Source: Fimbriimonadales bacterium
GTDB taxonomy: Bacteria > Armatimonadota > Fimbriimonadia > Fimbriimonadales > ATM1
Assembly (NCBI GenBank): GCA_041744215.1
Contig: JBGTLG010000033.1
Location: 64,001-128,000, forward strand
Length of the DNA: 64,000 nt
Direction of reading: 5' to 3'
The notes under the pieces were generated by a model that saw only the letters and a list, made by a program, of their open reading frames with translations, made no database searches and had not been told where the DNA came from. Position 1 is the first letter of the stretch, and each line of letters opens with the position of its first letter. A program made the translations under genes and the position numbers. Of this stretch, positions 3,958 through 17,612 are shown piece after piece.

Positions 3958-4266
3958 ATGATGAAGCTAATGTTAGGTTGGCTACTTGCGATCGCTATCG
4001 CTGTGGTGGTGTTCGGTCTTGCGGTGGATCACCCGGTCGCCAATGGGATTTATCTGGCGGCGATGACGGTGTTCGCGGCCGGTGCGACGTTCGGCGGGGT
4101 GGTTATGGCGTGGCTTATGGTCCGCGCGGCTCTTCGGGGTGACCTGTTCCGGGACACTCGCAGCCGCATGGGTCGGGACGTAGGTTTCGGGAAGGGCGGT
4201 CCTGCCCCGGTTGTTCGGACGGACGAGGAAGCGCTCCAGGAGTTCCTTGATCGAAGCCGTTATTAG
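3958..4266 (+). CDS. small two-TM membrane protein
   Basis: Two hydrophobic segments and a charged tail; lies between the 38-bp repeats. Confidence 0.55.
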   Translation: MMKLMLGWLLAIAIAVVVFGLAVDHPVANGIYLAAMTVFAAGATFGGVVMAWLMVRAALRGDLFRDTRSRMGRDVGFGKGGPAPVVRTDEEALQEFLDRSRY

Positions 4267-4283
4267 GTGTAGGATCTGCGGGG

Positions 4284-4386
4284 TTAGACGTGTTCTCTGA
4301 CGAGTCCTACGACTTGGCCGATCAGTTCGCATCTTAGGGTTTCGAGGGGCGGATAGTCGGGGTTGTCGCTTTTCAGGATGGGCTCG
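4284..4386 (-). pseudogene. 3' fragment of a peptidase S24 (LexA/UmuD/phage CI-type) gene
   Basis: EPILKSDNPDYPPL...CELIGQVVGLVR* matches the S24 C-terminal consensus; homology stops at the repeat. Confidence 0.6.
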
Positions 4387-4424
4387 CAGTTTACTGAATC
4401 GAAGAACGCCCACTTGCCCCAACG
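4387..4424. repeat. 38-bp perfect direct repeat, copy 2
   Basis: Identical to 3858-3895. Confidence 0.95.
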
Positions 4425-4564
4425 ACGGACGCTCCTAACGTCGCGTCCGTCGATTGGGCAAGTCGTTTGAGGCAGGTGACCCTCCGGCAGATCGCGGTCT
4501 CTGGTTAAGGGCCGAGAGGAGCGTAAAGCCACCCGGCCCTGGTCAGCTAAGAGGAACTTCGCTT

Positions 4565-5335
4565 CTACTTCTTTCTTCGCCGCGCGGCCAGAGCCGCAAG
4601 GCCGATGCCGAGGATCGCCAAGCTTGCAGGCTCGGGGACCGCATACCCGACGCCCGTTTCGCCGGAAAAGGCAGCGCGGATATGAAGCTGCGCTGGGTTG
4701 GCCATCGGATCGTATAGCGCTGGGATCCAGCCGGTGGGTCGGTCGATGAAATCCAAATGACCTCGCATCACGCCGCTTTGGCCTATCAACTGGTTTCGGA
4801 TAGCGATCTCGCCGCCAACAATTGTGCCGACGCCCTCGAGCACGTAGGCGTCGAAATCCGAATATCCGTACAGCGAAACGGCATCGAGTTCGAGCGCCCA
4901 CAGCACGCCGAACGGCATACCGAGGGAGGGGATCGAGCCCATGATGACGAGGTCTGGACCTGCTGCGTCGGCGCCCGTACCGGTTAGGCTTACGTCTATC
5001 ACTCCGCCCGGGCCGGCGTATGGCGCGTCTTGGCCGGTGAATATGACTTGCATCCCGAAGTCGCCGCCGAACTCGCCAGCGGCGTTGAAGATCGGATGGA
5101 CCGGCGGGGCCGGCCAGGTTGGCCAATAGGCAGTCACCTCGGTATCCAATGATCCGAGAGTGTAAGAAAGCAGATCGGGCGCCACGCCCCTTGTGCTCCA
5201 CTCTGGCATCGGCACCGTCCTATTGAACGCACCGAAGTTTATGTCGTGGCCGGTTATCGTTGGTGTGAGCGGCGCGGCCATCGCGGCCGATCCCATCAAT
5301 GCTGCCGACGCCCATAAGAAGGCTCTGCTTATCAT
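4565..5335 (-). CDS. PEP-CTERM sorting domain protein
   Basis: Signal peptide; C-terminal VPEPASLAILGIGLAALAARRRKK; AGGAG RBS. Confidence 0.9.
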   Translation of the reverse strand: MISRAFLWASAALMGSAAMAAPLTPTITGHDINFGAFNRTVPMPEWSTRGVAPDLLSYTLGSLDTEVTAYWPTWPAPPVHPIFNAAGEFGGDFGMQVIFTGQDAPYAGPGGVIDVSLTGTGADAAGPDLVIMGSIPSLGMPFGVLWALELDAVSLYGYSDFDAYVLEGVGTIVGGEIAIRNQLIGQSGVMRGHLDFIDRPTGWIPALYDPMANPAQLHIRAAFSGETGVGYAVPEPASLAILGIGLAALAARRRKK

Positions 5336-5722
5336 CGTTTTCTCTCCTTGGCCTCCGGATAAAAATCCCGTTTGGCCTTAGGGCCTCAATCCGGCCCGGT
5401 TACAGGGTATCACAACTGGCATCGACGTGGGCTGTGGGTGCGCAAAACTGGTAATTCTACCGTGGCGCAGGGCGGCGTTCCTCTTGGGTGATGCGGTTTT
5501 CGGATGACGTTGTTGTTGGCGTTGGGATTCGTGTAATTCGGGGGGTCTTGAGAATGGAAGCGGTGCGATGTGCAGATGGCCAAACCTCGCTCCGATCTCA
5601 ATGGCACTCGCCTGATCCTCGAACAACCGCGCTGGTATCTGTCGCCCGTAAAATTGCCATCGTTTGGCATAGGCATATAGATTGCTATATAATCAGGGTT
5701 CACTATCTGGTTGGGGGCAGGC

Positions 5723-9135: not shown

Positions 9136-10155
9136 TCAGGGCTCTGCGCCCTGGGAGGTCAAGCCGAGGAATTGCCGAAAAAGCCGGCTCCGCCTGCGGT
9201 TTGTGGGCGGGTCGTCGTCCTCACCGAAGAGGATGAGGGTCAAGAGTGCGTCAAGCCTGCGTGGGTGATATTCACCAATGCCGCGCAAGGCACCGAGTCT
9301 GAGCCACCCGATCGCCCGGGTTGCAGCGTCAATGTTCATGCCTTCTTGGGCATCAATCTTCTTCCGAGCACCGTCAACGCCTTCCCTGATTCTCTGCTCG
9401 TAAAAGGCGCTTTTTGCTTGGCGCTCCTGATAGATAAGAACGTTTAGGCTGTCCGAAAGTTCCGACAGACGGTCGGTTGTGGTTGACACCTGGACGTACC
9501 CGGCGATGCCGAGGGACCTTTCGCCCAGGAGCCCTCGCACCTCAAAACCCTGGGCGTCCAGCTGCCTGACGGCCTCGGGCGCCGCCCCAGAGGCGGCTAA
9601 GCCGCCCAGATGGAGCATGACGCCGAGGCGGCGGCCCGCGCCTGCGTTGCTCGTGCTCGCTGCGAGGAAGCCGAACTCCGAGTCTTGGGCGAAGGTCAGC
9701 CGCTCCGCAAGCCGTGCCTCGGCCGATTGGGCTGCCGACAGCGATGACTCGATGGACAACCCGGCTGTGACCGCCTGGATGCGCAGGTGGTCCTCCTCGT
9801 TCACCATGATCGCTACGCCCCGATCCGGCGAGAGCAGGAGGTTCCTGCCGGGTTTGTTTGGGTCGAACTCGGGCGAAATGAGGCGACTTCCGACCAGAAC
9901 CGCTCGCTGCACCTCTGGGAGGTTCTGGACCTGTGTGAAGTTCCCAGCGAGGCCAGCCGCGAGGCACTCCCTTTCGATGGCTTCGAGTTCCGGGCGCGAC
10001 GCCGAATGTGTGAACGGATAGCCCGACAGATTGCGCATCAGACGGGCACGCGAAGAGATTACGACGTCGCTTTGCGGCGCGTCGCCTTGGAGCCACGCTG
10101 GCGCGACCGCTTGACGCAGCACTGCATCGAGCCAGGGGTCAAACTCTTGCGTCAC
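9136..10155 (-). CDS. mcsB: McsB-like protein-arginine kinase (ATP:guanido phosphotransferase), divergent
   Basis: [28 protein letters not shown] motifs; directly upstream of clpC. Confidence 0.75.
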
Positions 10156-10235
10156 GCTCGGCGCACCACGGGTTGACTTGGAGAGGTGATCGGCCGCATA
10201 ATCGGATCGGCCCATCCCCCTGAGGAAATAGTCGA

Positions 10236-10538
10236 ATGTTTCAACTTGTCGGTGTAGACGTTTACCTGAGATCTGAAGGTGTTCCCGAAGTTCCGCGCGA
10301 ACACGGTCCTTTCAAATTGATTTTCATATCCAATCGCGGCACTCGCGTTTGGCCAAACAAAATCGAAGGCTTTTCGATGATCGATTGGCCGCGGTGTCGG
10401 TATGAAGCGGACGGCGAGATTTCTGACAATGATGTCGAGGGACTGGTGAGCGCGCTTACCCACGGCGGCTTCACATGGACGAAGTGTCAGAAGCTCTATC
10501 GCAAAGACGGGGAGAACCAATACAGTCAGCCTTATTGA
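10236..10538 (+). CDS. stand-alone isocitrate dehydrogenase C-terminal extension domain
   Basis: LVGVDVY...ISNRGTRVWP...DWPRCRY...QKLY.KDG..QYSQ resembles the C-terminal domain of Thermus-type ICDH. Confidence 0.7.
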   Translation: MFQLVGVDVYLRSEGVPEVPREHGPFKLIFISNRGTRVWPNKIEGFSMIDWPRCRYEADGEISDNDVEGLVSALTHGGFTWTKCQKLYRKDGENQYSQPY

Positions 10539-10569
10539 GGCGTGGGTCGTTTGACGAAGTAGAAAAGAT

Positions 10570-11568
10570 ATGCCATACGATGTTTGTTTGATTCGTGGAG
10601 ACGGGATTGGGCCGGAGATCACTGCGGCGACAGAAAAGATCATCGCAGCCGCGGGCGTTGCAATCAACTGGATCGAAGTCGATGCGGGATTGCGGTGTGT
10701 CGAAGCTGGTGAGCCGATTGTTCCGGACAGGACGCTGAAGAAGATCGAGGAAGTTGGGATCGCGCTCAAGGCGCCGATGACGACACCGATTGGGAAGGGT
10801 TCTGTTTCGCCGAATGTAACGCTACGGAAGCGACTGGATTTGTACGCTTGTGTGCGCCCTGCGAAGTCGTTACCGGGCGTGCCGACCCCTTTCGAGGGGC
10901 TCGACATCGTCATCTTCCGCGAAAACACAGAGGATCTCTACGCGCAGATCGAATACATGGAGACGCCGACGGTCGCGATGTCGACCAAACTCATTTCGGA
11001 GATGGGAGCGGAGAGGATTGCCCGCGCGGCGTTTGAGTATGCGCGGAAAAACCGTCGTCGCGCTGTGACATGCGTTCACAAAGCGAACATCATGAAGATT
11101 TCGGACGGCCTTTTTCTGCGCACTTTTCAGCGCGTTGCGGCCGAGTATCCTGACGTAGAGTCGTGGGACGTTATTGTGGATGCGCTCTGTATGCAGTTGG
11201 TGACGAAGTGGCGGATGTTCGATGTTTTGGTATTGCCAAACTTGTATGGCGATATAGTGAGCGATCTCGCTGCGGGCATGATGGGCGGTTTGGGTGTTGC
11301 GCCCGGCGCGAATTATGGAGACAAAGCCGCGATTTTTGAAGCGGTGCATGGCTCCGCGCCGAAATATCAAGGGCTCGACAAAGTGAATCCGATGGCGCTA
11401 TTGCTGTCCGGGACTTTGATGTTGCGGCACATCGGCGAAGACGCTGCGGCGATTCGGATCGAGAAAGCGGTCGAGACGACTTTGGTTAAGGGGATCAAGA
11501 CGTACGATTTGTTCGGCTCTGCTAAGACGAGCGAGTTCGCGGATGCGGTTTGTTCGGAACTGGGTTAG
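10570..11568 (+). CDS. icd: isocitrate/isopropylmalate dehydrogenase family enzyme (probable isocitrate dehydrogenase)
   Basis: GDGIGPE, RENTEDLY, VHKANIMK, NLYGDIVSD and EAVHGSAP motifs. Confidence 0.85.
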   Translation: MPYDVCLIRGDGIGPEITAATEKIIAAAGVAINWIEVDAGLRCVEAGEPIVPDRTLKKIEEVGIALKAPMTTPIGKGSVSPNVTLRKRLDLYACVRPAKSLPGVPTPFEGLDIVIFRENTEDLYAQIEYMETPTVAMSTKLISEMGAERIARAAFEYARKNRRRAVTCVHKANIMKISDGLFLRTFQRVAAEYPDVESWDVIVDALCMQLVTKWRMFDVLVLPNLYGDIVSDLAAGMMGGLGVAPGANYGDKAAIFEAVHGSAPKYQGLDKVNPMALLLSGTLMLRHIGEDAAAIRIEKAVETTLVKGIKTYDLFGSAKTSEFADAVCSELG

Positions 11569-12740
11569 TTCGTCAGCTTATCGAGCGCCTTCTTGAGATT
11601 TGGCGACGGTTTGCCGTAGCTGTGCGCTTCCCCCAGAGTTGTTCGGATGAGGCCGGAAGAGCGATCATATTCGATCATAACGACCACTTTTGCGCGGCGC
11701 AGTACGAGTTTCGCGGTGGGAGTGAACTTCTTTGGAGCGGAGGCCTGATCTACGTCGGCGTCTTTAACTTCGACGGACTGCCTTCCATTGGAAACGGTGA
11801 TCGCGCCGATGCCGAGGTCCCAACGCAAAGGCGCGGCTTTGCCGCCGCCGAATGGCGAGTACTTCTTCACACTCCAGACTGTTCCAGAGTTTGGATCCAC
11901 GTATCCACCGAATGCGGCCACGTCGGTCTTTACCGATTCACCCATGCTGGGTTGGAATGCAGAAAAGCAGTAAGCAAGCGTCGATTCATTCGTTCCGATG
12001 AGATCGAGTACGGATTGCGGCACGGCGTTGACGTTCTGATTGATGTGCTGGGGTTTCGGGTTCCAGATCACCAATTCCGCCACCTCGACGTTGAGTGTGC
12101 TGGCTCCGAAGTTGGTGTAGACGTGGGCGGCGAAGTTGTAGATCGCCGCTTCGAGTGAAATCGAAACCTGAAACGATGTGGGCGGATTTGGGAGCCTGGG
12201 GTCACGAGTTAATCCGGTCAAGCGACCGGTGTTGTAGTCGATAAGAGCGGCGATGCGATGCTCAGGATGAAAGAAAATACTCTCATGGGTAGGCAGGTAA
12301 GCCAGAACATAGGCCGGAAAGCCATTCGCATTCAACTCCCGCACGAACTGCTTGACAACCACCGGCTGCGTGCACCCACTCGCTGCGACGTATTCAGTTC
12401 CGAGGGCCATGGCTAGATTGTCGCCAATAGCATTCTGGTGGTCCCATGACTCGGGCGGAGGGAATACGCGATCCGGAGGGGAATAGCTGAAGCCCACGAT
12501 GAGATGATCTGACCTGCGCAGGCGTACCCTGCCATCCGGGAAGGCAAAGACATACACGTCCGGAGTGTGATCTGCGCTCTCCAACTCAAACACGGGAACA
12601 TACAGATTCGAGTACGTTCCGTTTGCGGTCGCCGCCATGTCGCGGAAAGCCCGGGCTTTTGCGAGAGCGACTGCCTCGTCGTCCACCTGAACCAGAAACC
12701 CCGCAACGACCGCTGGGACCAATAGCGCAGTTATCATCAT
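11565..12740 (-). CDS. exported protein with PepSY-like motifs, paralog 1
   Basis: Signal peptide; LIDYNTGRL and YVDPNSGTV motifs; clear homolog of the next two ORFs. Confidence 0.8.
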   Translation of the reverse strand: MMITALLVPAVVAGFLVQVDDEAVALAKARAFRDMAATANGTYSNLYVPVFELESADHTPDVYVFAFPDGRVRLRRSDHLIVGFSYSPPDRVFPPPESWDHQNAIGDNLAMALGTEYVAASGCTQPVVVKQFVRELNANGFPAYVLAYLPTHESIFFHPEHRIAALIDYNTGRLTGLTRDPRLPNPPTSFQVSISLEAAIYNFAAHVYTNFGASTLNVEVAELVIWNPKPQHINQNVNAVPQSVLDLIGTNESTLAYCFSAFQPSMGESVKTDVAAFGGYVDPNSGTVWSVKKYSPFGGGKAAPLRWDLGIGAITVSNGRQSVEVKDADVDQASAPKKFTPTAKLVLRRAKVVVMIEYDRSSGLIRTTLGEAHSYGKPSPNLKKALDKLTN

Positions 12741-12862
12741 GTATCTCCTGGCGCGTTCCTCGAGGCGCGGCCCGCAGGCTTCGCGGACCAAAGATAGGAC
12801 GTGCGACCAGGGGAAGGAAGACGAGCGAGTTCGGGGATGCGGTCTGCGCGGAGTTGGTTTAG
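12741..12862. repeat. intergenic repeat (upstream region plus copy of icd 3' 45 bp)
   Basis: Homologous to 14038-14159; 12818-12862 reads KTSEFGDAVCAELV*. Confidence 0.9.
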
Positions 12863-14037
12863 CCCGTGAGCCGATCGAGCGCCTTCTTGAGATTCGGCGA
12901 CGGTTTGCCGTAGCTGTGCGCTTCTCGCAGGGTTGTGCGGAGGAGACCGCTTGTTCGGTCGTATTCGATCATGACAACGACTTTTGCGCGTCGGAGTACG
13001 AGTCTCGATGAAGCGTTGAAGGCTTTTGGTGCGGGAACTCGATCGACGTCAGCGTCCTTGACTTCGATCGAATGTCTTCCGTTCGAGGCAATAATCTCTC
13101 CGAGTCCCAGATCCCAACGAAGCGGCGCCAGCTTACCGCCGCCGCCGCCGAATGGCGTGTATTGCTTCACGCTCCAGACTGTGCCTGAATTTGGATCTAC
13201 GTAGCCCTCGAAAAAGGCGACGTCGGTCTTCGTCGATTCGCCCATGCTCGGTTGGAACGCCGAAAAGTAGTAAACGAGGGTCGATTCGTTCGTGCCGATG
13301 AGGTCGAGTACGGCTTGCGGCACGTTGTTCGCAGACTGATTGATGTCCTGCGGCTTCGGGTTCCAAATCACTAATTCTGCCCCATCGATGTTGAGGTTGC
13401 TTGCACCGTAGTTCGAGTAAACCCAGGACGCGAAGTTGTAGAGGGCGGTCTCCGGAGAAATCGAGGATTGGAGAGAGGCGGGTGGATTAGGGGTGTTCTC
13501 CGGACCGAAGTAACCGGTCAGGCGTCCGGTGCTTGGCTCAATCACAGCGAAGGCTTGATATCCACCGTCGAACGGAATTCCATTGTAAGTCGGGGCACAA
13601 TTGAAAACGTATCCCGGCCGACCGGAAACATTATTCTCCCGGCGGAGGCGCATCACCACAAAGTTGAGGGAATGCCCCGCTGCCGTCAAGTAGTTCATTG
13701 CCAATGCAACGGCCGCCGAGTCGCCAATTGCGTTCAGGCTATCCCACGTTTCAAGCGGTATAGCTTCGTCCAGCGGGGAAAAACTGAAGCCGACAACCAG
13801 GTGATTAGAGCGAAGCAGGATCACGCCGCCGTCCTTGAACTCGAAGACATACTTATCCGAACTGTGATCGGTGCCCCTCAATTCAAATACAGGACTGTAC
13901 AGATTCGAGTACGTTCGGTTTGCCGTCGCCGCCACGTCGCGGAACGCCCGGGCTTTTGCGAGAGCGACTGCCTCGTCGTCCACCTGAACCAGAAACCCCG
14001 CAACGACCGCTGGGATCAAAAGTGCAGTTATCATCAT
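12859..14037 (-). CDS. exported protein with PepSY-like motifs, paralog 2
   Basis: Signal peptide; VIEPSTGRL and YVDPNSGTV motifs. Confidence 0.8.
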   Translation of the reverse strand: MMITALLIPAVVAGFLVQVDDEAVALAKARAFRDVAATANRTYSNLYSPVFELRGTDHSSDKYVFEFKDGGVILLRSNHLVVGFSFSPLDEAIPLETWDSLNAIGDSAAVALAMNYLTAAGHSLNFVVMRLRRENNVSGRPGYVFNCAPTYNGIPFDGGYQAFAVIEPSTGRLTGYFGPENTPNPPASLQSSISPETALYNFASWVYSNYGASNLNIDGAELVIWNPKPQDINQSANNVPQAVLDLIGTNESTLVYYFSAFQPSMGESTKTDVAFFEGYVDPNSGTVWSVKQYTPFGGGGGKLAPLRWDLGLGEIIASNGRHSIEVKDADVDRVPAPKAFNASSRLVLRRAKVVVMIEYDRTSGLLRTTLREAHSYGKPSPNLKKALDRLTG

Positions 14038-14159
14038 GTATCTACGGGCGCGTTCCTCGAGGCGCGGGCCCCAGGCTTCGCGGACCTAAGATAGGATGTG
14101 CGACCAGGGAACGGAAGACGAGCGAGTTCGGCGACGCGGTTTGCGCTGAAGTGGCTTAG
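14038..14159. repeat. intergenic repeat (upstream region plus copy of icd 3' 45 bp)
   Basis: Homologous to 12741-12862; 14115-14159 reads KTSEFGDAVCAEVA*. Confidence 0.9.
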
Positions 14160-15325
14160 CCCGTGAGCCGATCGAGCGCCTTCTTGAGGTTCGGCGACGG
14201 TTTGCCGTAGCTGTGCGCTTCTCCCAGGGTTGTGCGGAGGAGACCGCTTGCTCGGTCATATTCGATCATGACAACGACTTTTGCGCGTCGGAGTACGAGT
14301 CTCGATGAAGCGTTGAAGGCTTTTGGTTCGGGAACTTGATCGACGTCAGCGTCCTTGACTTCGATCGATTGTTTTGCGTTGGAAACGGTGATCGCGCCGA
14401 TTCCGAGGTCCCAACGCAAAGGCGCGGCTTTGCCGCCGCCGAATGGGAAGTACTGCTTCACGCTCCAGACTGCGCCCGAGTTGGGATCGACATATCCGCC
14501 GTAACCGGAAATGTCCCGCTTCCCTTCCGCGTATCCGCTCGGCTGCACGGCCCAGAAGCAATAGACTAGAACCGAGTCGTTGGTTCCAATCAAGTCGAGT
14601 ACCGATTGAGGCAGACTATGGGATTCATAGCTGATATGCGACGGTTGTGGATTCCATATCACCAGTTCCGAAGTCTCCACGTTGATATTGCTGGCACCGT
14701 AAGTGGTGAAGACGTGCGCAGCAAAGTTATAAAGCGCCGTTTCATGTGGCACAGACGTCAGAAATGAAGCCGGTGGATTCGGCAATTCGGCGTCCCGTAC
14801 GAGAAACAAGAGGCGACCCGTGTTGTATTCCACCAAAGTTGATATTGCGTACTGAGGATGGTAGAGTACGCTGTTGTGAGCAGGAAGATGTGTCATTGAG
14901 TAAGCTACATACATGACTGCATGCAGATCTCGCTCAAAGTACTTGAGGACGCATGGCTGCGAGCAACCACTCGCTTCGATGTACTGGCCTGCAAGCGTCT
15001 GTGCAGCTGAATCGCCGATCGCGTTCTGGGCATCCCACGTATCGAGAACTGGCCGTGCCGCATCCGGCGGTGAGAAACTGAAACCGACGATGAGGTGATC
15101 CGAGCGGCGAATGCGCACTCCCCCATCTGCAAAATAGAAGTGATAAATCTCAGCGTTGTGATCGGTTTTTTCAAGCTCGAATACTGGAGAATATTGGTTC
15201 GAATATGTTCCGTTCGCGCTCGCCGCTGTCTCACGAAATGCTCGCGCTTTATTGAGCGCAGTTACTTCGTCGTCATAAACGAAGCCTGTGGACAACAAAA
15301 CTGGCAGCAGAACAATTGAGGTCAT
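14156..15325 (-). CDS. exported protein with PepSY-like motifs, paralog 3
   Basis: ATG overlaps the stop of the upstream gene (ATGA); LVEYNTGRL and YVDPNSGAV motifs. Confidence 0.8.
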   Translation of the reverse strand: MTSIVLLPVLLSTGFVYDDEVTALNKARAFRETAASANGTYSNQYSPVFELEKTDHNAEIYHFYFADGGVRIRRSDHLIVGFSFSPPDAARPVLDTWDAQNAIGDSAAQTLAGQYIEASGCSQPCVLKYFERDLHAVMYVAYSMTHLPAHNSVLYHPQYAISTLVEYNTGRLLFLVRDAELPNPPASFLTSVPHETALYNFAAHVFTTYGASNINVETSELVIWNPQPSHISYESHSLPQSVLDLIGTNDSVLVYCFWAVQPSGYAEGKRDISGYGGYVDPNSGAVWSVKQYFPFGGGKAAPLRWDLGIGAITVSNAKQSIEVKDADVDQVPEPKAFNASSRLVLRRAKVVVMIEYDRASGLLRTTLGEAHSYGKPSPNLKKALDRLTG

Positions 15326-16677
15326 TGGCTTCCTCCTGGTGGATTGTTTGGCGTTCCCCCTCCGAAACTTGGCGGGTTGATCAGAATCCACTGGGTTCCT
15401 GTTCCCCCGTATACACCCATCAGTTTCATGTTCCCGTCTCCTACAATTCGAGGGTACGCCCTCGAAATCGATTCATACTGTCCAGCGCGTGGAATGACTC
15501 CGGCACTGATCAAGTCACCGATCACTTTTCCAACCGTCTTGCCGGCCGTCAAATCGCTAAAGAACTTCTCGGCCCAAATGGCGAGGTCAGTAATGTCTCC
15601 AGGGTTCAACGCAGGCGGCGGTCCGTGAGCAAACAATGAGAAGCTCCATCCTACATAGGCTCTATTCTTTGAACCCGATGTTATCGAACCGCCAGGTCCA
15701 AGGACAACATTTGCTATCTCAAAAGCAGCGGCAGGCGTTCTCCCGCTGTCGCGCCCAGTCGTGTCGCAAGCCATCAAGACGACAAGATTGTACGGCGGAG
15801 CGTTCGCCGGATTCGGATCAAGTACCCAGTCTTTGATGTTGGACCAAGTCGCTTCCAGTGGCTGCGGCTGCATAGCAACAGAAGGATAGACACCGCGCTG
15901 GTCGCCATGAGTAATGCCGACCAGCACCGTGCTCTTGCGTATCAGCTCGGTCAATTGTGATAGCGAGACGGATTGTGAATCATCGAACGGCTTTGGCTCT
16001 GCCGTGTGATTCATTCCTTCGAGCGCGCCACCGGCTATGTTGATGCACTCCTTAGCCTTCGAAGACTCCGGCGAACCCGGTGGCACGGCGGTTGCGACAA
16101 GTCCAGCTTTGTTGTACACCTTGATGTCCACTTCGACGACCAGTTCCTTCGTAGAGGTCTCCTGCACATACGTAACTCCGCCGTCGTATGAGACGAGCCA
16201 ATACCCCTCGAATTTCGCGCGAAGGCGGATTTTGCCCTGAGTGTTATCTGGGAAATGGGTCGAAGAGAAGCGCACTCCGTAGCCGTAGGTTGGAGTCGGC
16301 TCATAACTGACCTGCGGCATCGGAGGATCATTCTCGCCAGAGGGGTTTCCCGCTTCCTCCCCCAGGATCTTCAGCTCGAATTCCACAATGCGGACTCCGG
16401 CCCAGTTGTCAATCGCGAAGGGATCATAGCCAGGTGTTCCCATCGGAATCTCTCCCGCTCCAGCATGCACACCGAACTCGACGCTCGTTCCGCTGACAAG
16501 GGTGGGAGAGTGCGATGACAGGACATCCTCTCCACTTACGCTGACCGAGAGTCTTTTCCCTTTGTGATCAAGGGTTACCGCGCCCGGGGGCGGCGGATCG
16601 GGGGAACCACCTCCACCCGTTTGCCCGAACAATCCAGCGCCGAGTAGCGACGCAGCGACGATCCATCCTACTCTCAT
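15322..16677 (-). CDS. secreted protein with putative caspase/CHAT/C25-like (clan CD) cysteine peptidase domain
   Basis: Signal peptide MRVGWIVAASLLGAGLFG; VGITHGD, LVVLMACDT and RAYVGWS motifs. Confidence 0.6.
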   Translation of the reverse strand: MRVGWIVAASLLGAGLFGQTGGGGSPDPPPPGAVTLDHKGKRLSVSVSGEDVLSSHSPTLVSGTSVEFGVHAGAGEIPMGTPGYDPFAIDNWAGVRIVEFELKILGEEAGNPSGENDPPMPQVSYEPTPTYGYGVRFSSTHFPDNTQGKIRLRAKFEGYWLVSYDGGVTYVQETSTKELVVEVDIKVYNKAGLVATAVPPGSPESSKAKECINIAGGALEGMNHTAEPKPFDDSQSVSLSQLTELIRKSTVLVGITHGDQRGVYPSVAMQPQPLEATWSNIKDWVLDPNPANAPPYNLVVLMACDTTGRDSGRTPAAAFEIANVVLGPGGSITSGSKNRAYVGWSFSLFAHGPPPALNPGDITDLAIWAEKFFSDLTAGKTVGKVIGDLISAGVIPRAGQYESISRAYPRIVGDGNMKLMGVYGGTGTQWILINPPSFGGGTPNNPPGGSQ

Positions 16678-16689
16678 CAATATAGTACA

Positions 16690-16722
16690 AGTATAAGAGA
16701 GAGAGAGAGAGAGAGAGAGCAA
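16690..16722 (-). promoter_or_regulatory. sigma70-like promoter whose spacer is a (CT)n/(AG)12 microsatellite
   Basis: On the minus strand: TTGCTC (16722-16717), 21-nt spacer, TATACT (16695-16690); the AG tract spans 16696-16719. Confidence 0.65.
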
Positions 16723-16730
16723 CAGTATTT

Positions 16731-17612
16731 TTACTGGGTTTTAGGCTCATCAGGATCGGTTTTTGGGACGGCTTGCTGGCGATTAGAGAAGCAGACCGCC
16801 AGCGCGATTCCGCCGAGGGTGGCGATGGAGGCGACGATCAGACGCATCGTGATCTGCTCCGAGAGAAGGAGCGCACCTGCGAACGCCGTTAGGATTGGGA
16901 CCGAAAGCTGGACGATGGCGGCGCGTGTCGAGGTTAGGCTTGGCTGCACCGCGTACCACAAGATGTAGCCGAGACCCGACGTGACGACCCCTGAAACAAC
17001 CGCGTACACAACGCCGACGTTTGTGAACTCGATTTGCGAGAAGAGAACTGCGGACAATGCGATTGCGAAAGGCGCGGACCAGCGGAAGTTCTCTGCCGTT
17101 GCGAGGGCAGGATGCTCAGCGCCTCGTCCGCGCAAAGTGTATGCCCCCCACGCGATTCCGGCGATGGCCATGAACGCCGCACCGAGCGGATCAGGCGCTG
17201 ATAGGCCAGGCGAGACGAGATAGACCAAGCCGCAGAGCGCGATCAAAAGCCCCAACCATTCTTGAAGTCCCGGACGCTCCCCGCGCACGATCCCATAAGA
17301 GATCATCGTCGCTTGCACCATGCCGAAGAGAATCAGCGCGCCGACGCCGGATTCGAGCGAAACGTATGCGAACGAGAACGCGATCGCATACAGCGCAAGC
17401 ATAAAGCCGGAGATCGCATTGCCAGCACCCTTTTGTTTTGAGCGAAGCGAGAACAGTAGCCAAAGCGCGATTGCGCCAGAGACGAGCCGGATCGTGGTGA
17501 AGCTCGCCGCATCGATTTGTTCTTCGCGCAGAGCCAGCCGACAAAGAATCGAATTGCTCGCAAATGCGGCGAGAGCGAGAGCTGTCAGCAGACCTGCGCG
17601 AAGCGGTGACAA
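16731..17612 (-). CDS. DMT/EamA family transporter
   Basis: About 10 TM segments in two EamA repeats. Confidence 0.9.
   Translation of the reverse strand: MSPLRAGLLTALALAAFASNSILCRLALREEQIDAASFTTIRLVSGAIALWLLFSLRSKQKGAGNAISGFMLALYAIAFSFAYVSLESGVGALILFGMVQATMISYGIVRGERPGLQEWLGLLIALCGLVYLVSPGLSAPDPLGAAFMAIAGIAWGAYTLRGRGAEHPALATAENFRWSAPFAIALSAVLFSQIEFTNVGVVYAVVSGVVTSGLGYILWYAVQPSLTSTRAAIVQLSVPILTAFAGALLLSEQITMRLIVASIATLGGIALAVCFSNRQQAVPKTDPDEPKTQ

Follow-up and report, generated by a model that had tools for sequence, protein, structure and literature searches.

The window analysed here, a stretch of 64 kb, raises the question of why the 3' end of a single icd-like gene is found three times, each copy beside one of three paralogous genes, and whether it was left there by a phage-like element or by ordinary duplication. 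The icd-like gene itself (10570..11568, plus strand) is intact and encodes a 332-aa protein of the isocitrate/isopropylmalate dehydrogenase family, which matches PF00180 (Iso_dh domain) with an E-value of 2.7e-100. Its best NCBIfam model, NF006673, gives 388 bits against a cut-off of 509 bits, and the match covers only model positions 6–342 of 482; relatives of the protein are labelled NAD-dependent IDH in the sources. This is the sole gene that has one of the three 45-mers as coding sequence: tail c1 (11524..11568, plus strand) comprises its working last 14 codons and stop and reads KTSEFADAVCSELG before the stop. Tails c2 (12818..12862) and c3 (14115..14159), also on the plus strand, read KTSEFGDAVCAELV and KTSEFGDAVCAEVA before their stops and are non-coding relics of an icd 3' end.

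As the original prediction had claimed, the three tails share an identical 16-mer, AAGACGAGCGAGTTCG; they open with it, and it occurs exactly three times in the 64-kb window. When up to three mismatches are allowed, the window holds six matches to it compared with 1.15 expected, a count reached by none of 100 shuffles. The pairwise differences between the tails (7, 8 and 7 of 45) are confined to positions 17–45, where the tails diverge by 24–28% beside the identical core; that every difference lies behind a start common to all copies is an observation that speaks against duplication. Read in the icd frame, c2 and c3 differ by five synonymous and two non-synonymous changes (P = 0.0035 under uniform random substitution; about 0.04 by a hand estimate with transition bias), which bears out the earlier description of the differences as largely synonymous. 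Such a bias is unexpected for neutral relics left by a duplication. The C-terminus CSELG encoded by c1 is that of the sister icd P0100, while c2 and c3 both have Ala at codon 11, as in the other icd clade, again a feature that counts against duplication. Each tail closes with the motif TTAG, at 11565–11568 (P1 stop), 12859–12862 (P2 stop) and 14156–14159 (P3 stop). Since minus-strand open reading frames end at 11565, 12859 and 14156, each TTAG contains both the icd-frame TAG and the TAA of the P gene, so that the predicted overlap of the two stops holds at all three tails.

Each 45-mer is the left edge of one of three head-to-tail units of about 1.3 kb. A unit consists of the 45-bp icd tail and a minus-strand gene of about 1.18 kb for a PepSY-like protein (P) that is either secreted or anchored in the membrane, and the two icd-proximal units additionally contain a 77-nt leader. 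When unit 1 is aligned to units 2 and 3 by self-BLAST, the alignments start exactly at 11524/12818 and 11524/14115, which confirms that the 45-mers bound the paralog units, and the array is in register, with three tails for three P genes and one boundary relic per unit. Tandem Repeats Finder reported no repeat in the array at its period limit of 500 nt, because the unit is longer than that limit. The 45-mer is thus present three times because it is the boundary sequence of a tandem array in which a variable secreted-protein gene occurs in three copies.

The leaders are the least easily derived part of the array. As P1 starts at 12740, both are 77 nt long (12741..12817 for P1 and 14038..14114 for P2, minus strand), and they are 92–94% identical to each other; the leader of P1 carries AGGAGA 3 nt before the ATG, and in that of P2 the ribosome-binding motif has decayed to GTAGA. 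No further copy of the leader was found in the window or in the related genome L001, and no match in icd or upstream of P3. Two candidate origins were rejected accordingly, namely decayed icd or the 3' end of the 451-aa gene described below (no similarity) and a dispersed repeat (no other copy in the window or L001). The leader cannot be derived from two local breakpoints of the array, and a simple duplication of tail plus P3 does not predict 77 nt of this kind. A leader without a local source makes a cassette-type origin of P1 and P2 possible, in which both would be single-gene cassettes (tail, P and leader) that entered serially at the 16-bp core, joined either through short-homology recombination or by a recombinase whose gene lies elsewhere. 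The block of c3, P3 and the 451-aa gene would then be the resident state, and each arrival would bring a new working icd end and shift the previous one a unit rightward. Two leader-bearing cassettes with three tails fit the expected N+1, and a core identical three times beside more diverged sequence is consistent with such entry, as are the synonymous-biased tail differences. The non-synonymous ones are of kinds found in working icd C-termini, for example SEFGDAV in 3 of 45 C-termini among the matches listed (120 relatives). Nonetheless we consider serial capture unlikely. Because the leader/core junctions are 92–94% alike, one junction-forming event and one duplication suffice; moreover, the icd sequence left of c1 is dissimilar to the leader ends by alignment and inspection, and the statistics rest on 45 nt.

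Several features of an integrative element were absent. Among the 63 open reading frames of 100 aa or more in the window (Pfam, 6 of them scanned at E ≤ 0.01 and 57 at E ≤ 1e-5), none belongs to an integrase, transposase or recombinase family and no phage gene was found, in agreement with the statement that the window holds no integrase and at odds with cassette capture. Phage 21 and e14 integrate into the icd 3' end of E. coli, and the original prediction had drawn on them as an analogy. As a mechanism this analogy is not supported: besides the missing integrase and phage genes, we found no inverted repeats at the leader/tail junctions (12770–12900 and 14065–14195) and no stable RNA fold in the intergenic repeats (z of -0.13 and +0.43 against shuffles), which also counts against cassettes. 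There was likewise no sign of a terminator or promoter in these repeats: a consensus scan picked out nothing in the leaders and tails, and its counts stayed close to those expected from shuffles. A weak, decayed icd similarity had been reported just upstream of the copies and taken as the ground for leaving plain duplication open, but it is not present in the sequence. The stretches from each P start to the next 45-mer show no similarity above shuffles to icd 11404–11523, to the whole of icd or to the sequence upstream of P3; they score 11–17 compared with shuffle means of 12.8–17.9, and the observed values are reached by 633–1959 of 2000 and 339–482 of 500 shuffles.

P1 and P2 are each flanked by tails; for the whole block, no tail could be detected on its far side, beside the EamA-family transporter gene (16731..17612, minus strand; PF00892) that is its right-hand neighbour. 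For a fourth icd tail at this place, 333 of 3000 shuffles were as good by local alignment and 267–1024 of 3000 by right-anchored alignment, and the best anchored score was equalled by 67 of 500 random window sites. The sequence ACTGGGTTTTAG was tried as an icd-tail remnant beside EamA and rejected, since its homologue is the right end of the L001 module. In the window, the right end of the module, the upstream region at 16678..16743 (minus strand), contains (AG)12 at 16696–16719 and aligns locally with its L001 counterpart at 28 of 34 positions, a score reached by none of 1000 shuffles. A displaced icd end beside EamA, of the sort left by e14 or phage 21, is thus undetectable, and the supposed cassettes are paralogs with gene-conversion tracts.

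The three P genes, all on the minus strand, are intact, with starts, stops and register: P1 (11565..12740) encodes 391 aa, P2 (12859..14037) a 392-aa paralog and P3 (14156..15325) a 389-aa paralog. P1 is predicted to have a hydrophobic segment at its N-terminus, followed by PepSY-like domains in tandem and by a beta domain at its C-terminus. Its AlphaFold model (pLDDT 92.6) has as best Foldseek match in the PDB the C-terminal domain of YpeB (5boi, E = 1.4e-8), followed by the propeptides of vibriolysin MCP-02 (3nqy, 1.9e-4) and a fungal metalloproteinase (4k90, 8.5e-4); P1–P3 are accordingly assigned the repeated helix-plus-sheet PepSY fold. Pfam finds no family in P1 at E ≤ 1, and 12 of 47 aligned family members match PF03413 weakly (best E = 2.4e-4). 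Upstream of P3 and start/stop-coupled to it through ATGA, in which the P3 ATG overlaps the preceding stop, is a gene for a 451-aa protein (15322..16677, minus strand), the first gene of the operon. This protein has no match in Pfam, NCBIfam or the PDB, and Pfam at E ≤ 10 gave one chance match. Its structure model has a pLDDT of 33, and its Atlas matches are all below 0.9, a CHAT-domain cluster in 27th place at 0.81 being a lead only; His257 and Cys304 are invariant in four sequences.

How the array came about can be judged by comparison with L001, a Fimbriimonadales MAG and the sole related genome compared at the icd flank (n = 1), whose icd protein is 93.1% identical to that of the window. 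There, icd converges directly on EamA, with the stops in one common TTAG and no array between. Copy number at icd is therefore not fixed, L001 having none of the putative cassettes, an outcome consistent with cassette entry in this one relative. The single P gene of L001, of which P3 is the positional counterpart, lies beyond clpC, 6 kb from icd. Behind it stand 14 nt, of which 13 agree with L001's own icd end; the chance of 10 of the 11 non-stop positions matching is 8e-6. The 5' part of a tail right of the L001 module was not significant (182–1696 of 3000 shuffles). The 14-nt relic indicates that the arrangement of a P gene adjoining an icd tail predates the array.

This relic also bears on an older origin, in which at least three tailed P paralogs stood beside icd before the genomes diverged. 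Relatives would each have kept one paralog, and in the window the unit ends and tails would have been kept alike by concerted evolution. The relic in L001 fits such an ancient array, as do central P types common across genomes (P2 with P0007; P3 with P0004 and P0005) and the saturation of four-fold sites between the paralog centres, which are 50–80% different. Still, we regard it as very unlikely. Four relatives would each have to retain one paralog, a different one every time, and lose the rest, and each P match outside the window is on a separate contig. If P0005 belongs to the P0101 genome, genomes with 99.1% identical icd have P alleles only 64% identical, which suggests allele turnover rather than slow loss. 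Divergence among the tails, moreover, is far lower than at neutral sites compared between the window and L001 (16–18% as against 45–54% at four-fold sites), so that the tails were copied or homogenised after the two lineages split.

The icd phylogeny further constrains which tail is native. All 12 informative sites support the tree (window,P0100),(P0101,L001), and the two variable residues of the tail (alignment sites 329 and 332) are among them. By this criterion c1 is the lineage's own working tail rather than an imported one, which contradicts the idea that an incoming element supplied the working icd end. It is awkward for cassette capture in the same way: c1, supposedly the newest import, is identical to the P0100 tail, and c3, the supposed resident, has those of the other clade. 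Plasmid and phage collections gave no match to P, which weighs against cassettes as well, and the GC content of the array block is that of its flanks.

The units themselves are mosaics, in which near-identical tracts are common to different pairs. P1 and P2 share 88–100% identity across the leader and the ~130 coding nt next to it, P1 and P3 are 92–98% identical over alignment columns 960–1050, and P2 and P3 are 95–100% identical over columns 1050–1260. Over the last ~50 codons P2 and P3 differ at none of the 34 four-fold sites, in contrast to the saturated centres. The P centres are 31–48% identical among themselves, and the signal-peptide region of P1 and P2 is unlike that of P3 (35% identity), both of which are observations against duplication. 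In its centre P2 shares 74% identity with P0007, which comes from another genome, and only 31–41% with P1 and P3; the centre of P3 is 73% identical to P0005. As the centres are nearer to alleles of other genomes than to each other, a pattern that cassette capture would also produce, the copies are not simply recent mutual duplicates.

Mosaics of this kind could in principle be made by a metagenome assembler that chained together the alleles which co-existing strains have of a single-copy P gene. Tracts of 100–200 nt at 95–100% identity between units are repeats that mislead assemblers, and a single contig of ~180 kb is the only source of the window proteins. Allelic variation, however, cannot create the leader/tail junction, which is present in two versions that differ by ~8% and run on into different P genes, and all three P genes have kept their reading frames; an artefact is therefore highly improbable.

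Taken together, the locus looks like the product of ordinary duplication and recombination rather than of phage-like insertion. We think it somewhat probable that duplicative recombination built the array and that gene conversion and allele exchange then reshaped it. The starting point would be one module, the 451-aa gene followed by P, converging on icd with overlapping stops. A single illegitimate join would have created the leader/tail junction, and unequal crossing-over between units would have given the third copy with the same boundary. The relics c2 and c3 would have been copied along with P because the unit edge fell inside icd. Gene conversion between units may since have homogenised the unit ends, while the variable P centre may have been exchanged with alleles that circulate among related genomes, leaving the diverse middles; no dedicated recombinase would be required. 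Of the serial addition of cassettes at icd that had been proposed, the bounding of units, the variable copy number and the synonymous bias stand, and the e14/phage-21 mechanism is not supported.

Compared with known systems, the array resembles e14 and phage 21 in having more than one icd 3' end in direct orientation, of which the icd-joined copy works and the others are relics, and in the empty site of a relative (L001, n = 1). It differs in lacking an integrase, phage genes and a far-side relic, in repeating only 45 bp between paralogous single genes and in having a working tail that is the lineage's own. Loci shaped by tandem duplication and concerted evolution, such as contingency or variable surface-protein loci, share with it in-register units with one boundary relic each, pairwise gene-conversion tracts and conserved unit ends around a variable middle; in contrast to these, the leader filler does not come from local flanks and the middles match alleles of other genomes better than each other. 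Integron cassette arrays and Xer-dependent modules (IMEX, pdif modules) consist of single-gene units in one orientation with a short repeated site between them and no recombinase inside the unit. The array likewise has recombinase-free single-gene units in the same orientation with a short repeat between, but it lacks intI and a hairpin-forming attC-like or dif-like inverted repeat, and its P genes point towards the putative insertion point, not away from it. The modelled fold of P1 aligns with YpeB and with the PepSY propeptides of M4/M36 peptidases, whereas P has an extra C-terminal beta domain, P1 has no Pfam match at E ≤ 1, and its partner is the 451-aa protein of no known family instead of SleB or an M4 peptidase.

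Judging by the fold of P, the array probably supplies the cell with three versions of a regulator or inhibitor of PepSY type that are expressed as part of the 451-aa gene's operon. It is quite unlikely that in this Armatimonadota lineage cassettes use the last 45 bp of icd as their landing pad, in an integrase-less, e14-like system. That each arrival gave icd a new C-terminus and stranded the old one, with variant alleles of a hypervariable secreted protein stockpiled in the process, is to be doubted to the same degree. If the cassette reading were true, it would represent a new way to target the 3' end of a housekeeping gene without a resident integrase. As by-products, the analysis brings to light a family of PepSY-like proteins that is small, with 88 cluster representatives in 1.84 billion proteins, and uncharacterised, and whose centre varies sharply even between genomes with near-identical icd, and a conserved pairing of P with the 451-aa protein of no known family. 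There is also evidence that the pair moved within the chromosome while retaining a piece of the icd end. On the reading that we favour, duplication followed by conversion and exchange, a tandem array can keep, as a relic at its boundary, a piece of the essential gene beside it, and relics of this sort can look like the attachment scars of prophages.

The icd-like gene (10570-11568, plus strand; PF00180, E 2.7e-100) encodes an intact Iso_dh protein of 332 aa and is followed by three minus-strand paralogs, P1 (11565-12740), P2 (12859-14037) and P3 (14156-15325), with an overall identity of 60-69%, and by a minus-strand gene for a 451-aa protein (15322-16677), whose stop overlaps the P3 start (ATGA). 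The original prediction placed three copies of the last 45 bp of icd along this block, and we found their positions and readings to be correct: c1, the working icd end, at 11524-11568, c2 at 12818-12862 and c3 at 14115-14159. As had been proposed, stop codons overlap at each copy; all three 45-mers end in TTAG, where the icd frame stops at TAG and TTA, read on the minus strand, gives the TAA stop of the ORFs ending at 11565, 12859 and 14156. The first 16 nt are common to all three; the window contains this 16-mer at exactly these three places, and its observed number of near matches was reached in 0 of 100 shuffles. The pairwise differences (7, 8 and 7) all lie within nt 17-45.

The repeat unit is composed of tail, P gene and leader, since 77-nt leaders, 92-94% alike, precede P1 (12741-12817) and P2 (14038-14114), and self-BLAST alignments begin exactly at 11524/12818 and 11524/14115. 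No further leader copy was found elsewhere in the window or in L001, a locus of a related Fimbriimonadales MAG. The weak, decayed icd similarity that had been described just before the copies is absent: the stretches upstream of c2 and c3 score at or below shuffle means against both icd and the region upstream of P3. The neighbourhood is ordinary chromosome, including clpC, mcsB, gyrA, accA/D and ABC transporters, with the same GC content in the block and its flanks, and none of 63 window ORFs encodes an integrase, transposase or recombinase, in agreement with the earlier reading. The three 45-mer copies are real, and they are the scar left at the unit boundaries of a tandem array of three units.

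The units are mosaics. P1 and P2 are 88-100% identical over the leader and the ~130 nt that open the coding sequence, P1 and P3 share one tract at 92-98% identity, and P2 and P3 are 95-100% identical over their last ~200 nt, where 0 of 34 four-fold sites are different. The P2/P3 tract ends at the P stop; in the tails just beyond it, 7 of 41 positions differ (Fisher test of tract versus tails, P=0.004 for all 215 coding sites and P=0.014 for four-fold sites). In their centres (alignment columns 111-200), P1, P2 and P3 are saturated at four-fold sites and share only 31-48% identity. P relatives from other genomes come closer, with 74% identity between the P2 centre and P0007, and 73% and 61% identity of the P3 centre to P0005 and P0004, respectively. 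Because the tail differences of 16-18% are far below the four-fold divergence of 45-54% between the window and L001, the unit ends are either young or have been homogenised, in contrast to the centres, which are either old or imported. That the array is an artefact of assembly is very improbable. Two antisense frames of 79 codons (12623-12862 and 13920-14159, plus strand), closed by c2 and c3, run through the 5' end of P1 or P2 and the leader; they are Arg/Pro-rich and resemble each other because the underlying DNA is 88-100% identical, and we do not take them for genes.

The bias of the 45-mer changes towards synonymous ones, already noted in the original prediction, was borne out, with five synonymous and two non-synonymous changes between c2 and c3 although both are now non-coding (P=0.0035 for the icd-frame differences under uniform substitution; P about 0.04 for the synonymous bias by hand estimate, if one third of random changes are synonymous). 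Judging from the coordinates, the wobble positions of the icd frame coincide with those of the P frame read past the P stop, so this bias alone is no pointer to icd.

Among 120 relatives, the common icd C-terminus is ...ADAVCSELK(G). All 12 of 12 informative sites agree with the icd tree (window,P0100),(P0101,L001), where P0100 and P0101 are icd relatives, and both variable tail residues fit it (Ser/Ser/Ala/Ala and Gly/Gly/Ala/Ala). Since the tail residues follow this tree, c1 (CSELG) is the lineage's own end, and the idea that an incoming element had supplied it did not stand. The other two copies, c2 (CAELV) and c3 (CAEVA), have Ala at codon 11, like the other icd clade; each is 12/14 identical to P0101 and 11/14 and 10/14, respectively, to c1, a margin too small to weigh. 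The isocitrate dehydrogenase itself looks split and permuted in both genomes. Of the 482-aa NF006673 model, positions 6-342 are covered by the 332-aa ORF and positions 374-478 by a separate 100-aa ORF just upstream of icd (10236-10538, plus strand), which corresponds to PF18324, the bacterial IDH C-terminal domain. L001 has the same arrangement (5032-5400 and 4006-5004, minus strand); the current icd 3' end is thus the place where the C-terminal domain attaches in longer relatives.

A contig search of genomes returned one locus, L001, whose icd is 93% identical to that of the window in amino acids and 81% in DNA, and whose clpC is 96% identical in amino acids. Its convergent icd and EamA genes share one TTAG with no sequence between, so the 5.2 kb holding P1, P2, P3 and the 451-aa gene is missing there. 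The number of units beside icd had been expected to vary among relatives, and in this one relative it is zero.

L001 carries a single P gene (9947-11119; protein P0006) beyond clpC. Upstream of it lies a remnant of the 451-aa gene, its last ~45 codons, and farther upstream the promoter-side sequence known from the window recurs, otherwise alignable (28/34) but with a shorter run of AG at about 9225-9240. Of the 14 nt after the P stop, 13 agree with the icd end of L001 itself (for 10 matches at the 11 non-stop positions, the chance is 8e-6). The two genomes therefore carry the module of tail, P, 451-aa gene and promoter at different places, and the adjacency of P and icd tail predates the array; the relic suggests that the module may have left icd in the L001 lineage, which would require a duplicative step. 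The stretch at 11116-11300 of L001 is a patchwork of recent rearrangement junctions, in which the P gene and the 14-nt relic are followed directly by a piece from inside L001's own clpC (gene positions about 2206-2329), copied at 96% identity, and then by an ORF end that we read as a PEP-CTERM-like sorting tail. EamA is 15 residues longer at its C-terminus in the window (...AVCFSNRQQAVPKTDPDEPKTQ; 16731-16795) than in L001 (...AVLTRR; 3994-4012), and its last codons and stop in the window are homologous to the right end of the L001 P module, so arrival or departure of the module rewrote the end of the neighbouring gene.

On balance, and with moderate confidence, we favour an origin in which duplicative recombination at the icd/P boundary would have built the array, and gene conversion and allele exchange would later have reshaped it. 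Because the two leader/core junctions are so alike, one junction-forming event and one unequal crossover would be enough for both. The original prediction was instead a serial addition of cassettes at the icd 3' end, on the model of e14 and phage 21. Plain duplication leaves unexplained a leader without local source, tail differences that all fall outside the first 16 nt, and the synonymous bias of c2 and c3, and these three points keep a cassette-type origin of P1 and P2 alive. Serial capture at the 16-bp core is nevertheless unlikely, as the like junctions can be had from the single event and crossover; of the features that define e14-type elements and integrons, an integrase in the window, an imported working icd end, and inverted repeats or a stable fold at the junctions were looked for and not found. 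Differential loss from an ancient array is also improbable. Integrons and IMEX/pdif modules served as further comparisons. For e14, PMC13626634 describes an icd gene that runs on into the prophage from one flank, the C-terminal pseudogene icdC on the other flank, and an excision that recombines the two.

The P proteins had no match in Pfam or NCBIfam, and their close family has seven members among 5.8 billion proteins, three of them from the window. Among 1.84 billion cluster representatives, a profile search gave 88 at E<=1e-3, nearly all of about 400 aa, and weak PF03413 matches occur in 12 of 47 family members. The model built from the 47-sequence alignment is confident (pLDDT 92.6), and its best PDB matches are the C-terminal domain of YpeB, a triple PepSY (5boi, E 1.4e-8), and two propeptides with PepSY domains, one from vibriolysin MCP-02 and one from a fungal metalloproteinase. 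The sequence of P also shows a hydrophobic segment at the N-terminus, and with this fold the best description is a PepSY-like protein that is secreted or anchored. By its fold and by analogy with YpeB (PMC13556211), P may regulate or inhibit a partner enzyme.

No family was found for the 451-aa protein in Pfam, NCBIfam or PDB. Its homologs and three P homologs are on contigs of equal size (49,190; 1,342,751; 48,436), which hints that the gene pair is conserved. The His in THGD and the Cys in MACDTT are invariant across four homologs, a pair that resembles the His/Cys dyad found in cysteine peptidases of clan CD; the sole outside hint is a CHAT-domain cluster at Atlas rank 27 (0.81), below the meaningful level.

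The P operon is headed by an (AG)12 run (16696-16719) immediately upstream of the 451-aa gene. A dinucleotide repeat of variable length in such a promoter region could be an on/off switch of the operon. P0005 and P0006 are 64% identical (93% in the last 67 alignment columns) beside icd proteins, P0101 and that of L001, that are 99.1% identical, assuming from equal-size contigs that P0005 and P0101 belong to one genome; the turnover of P is thus much faster than that of housekeeping genes.
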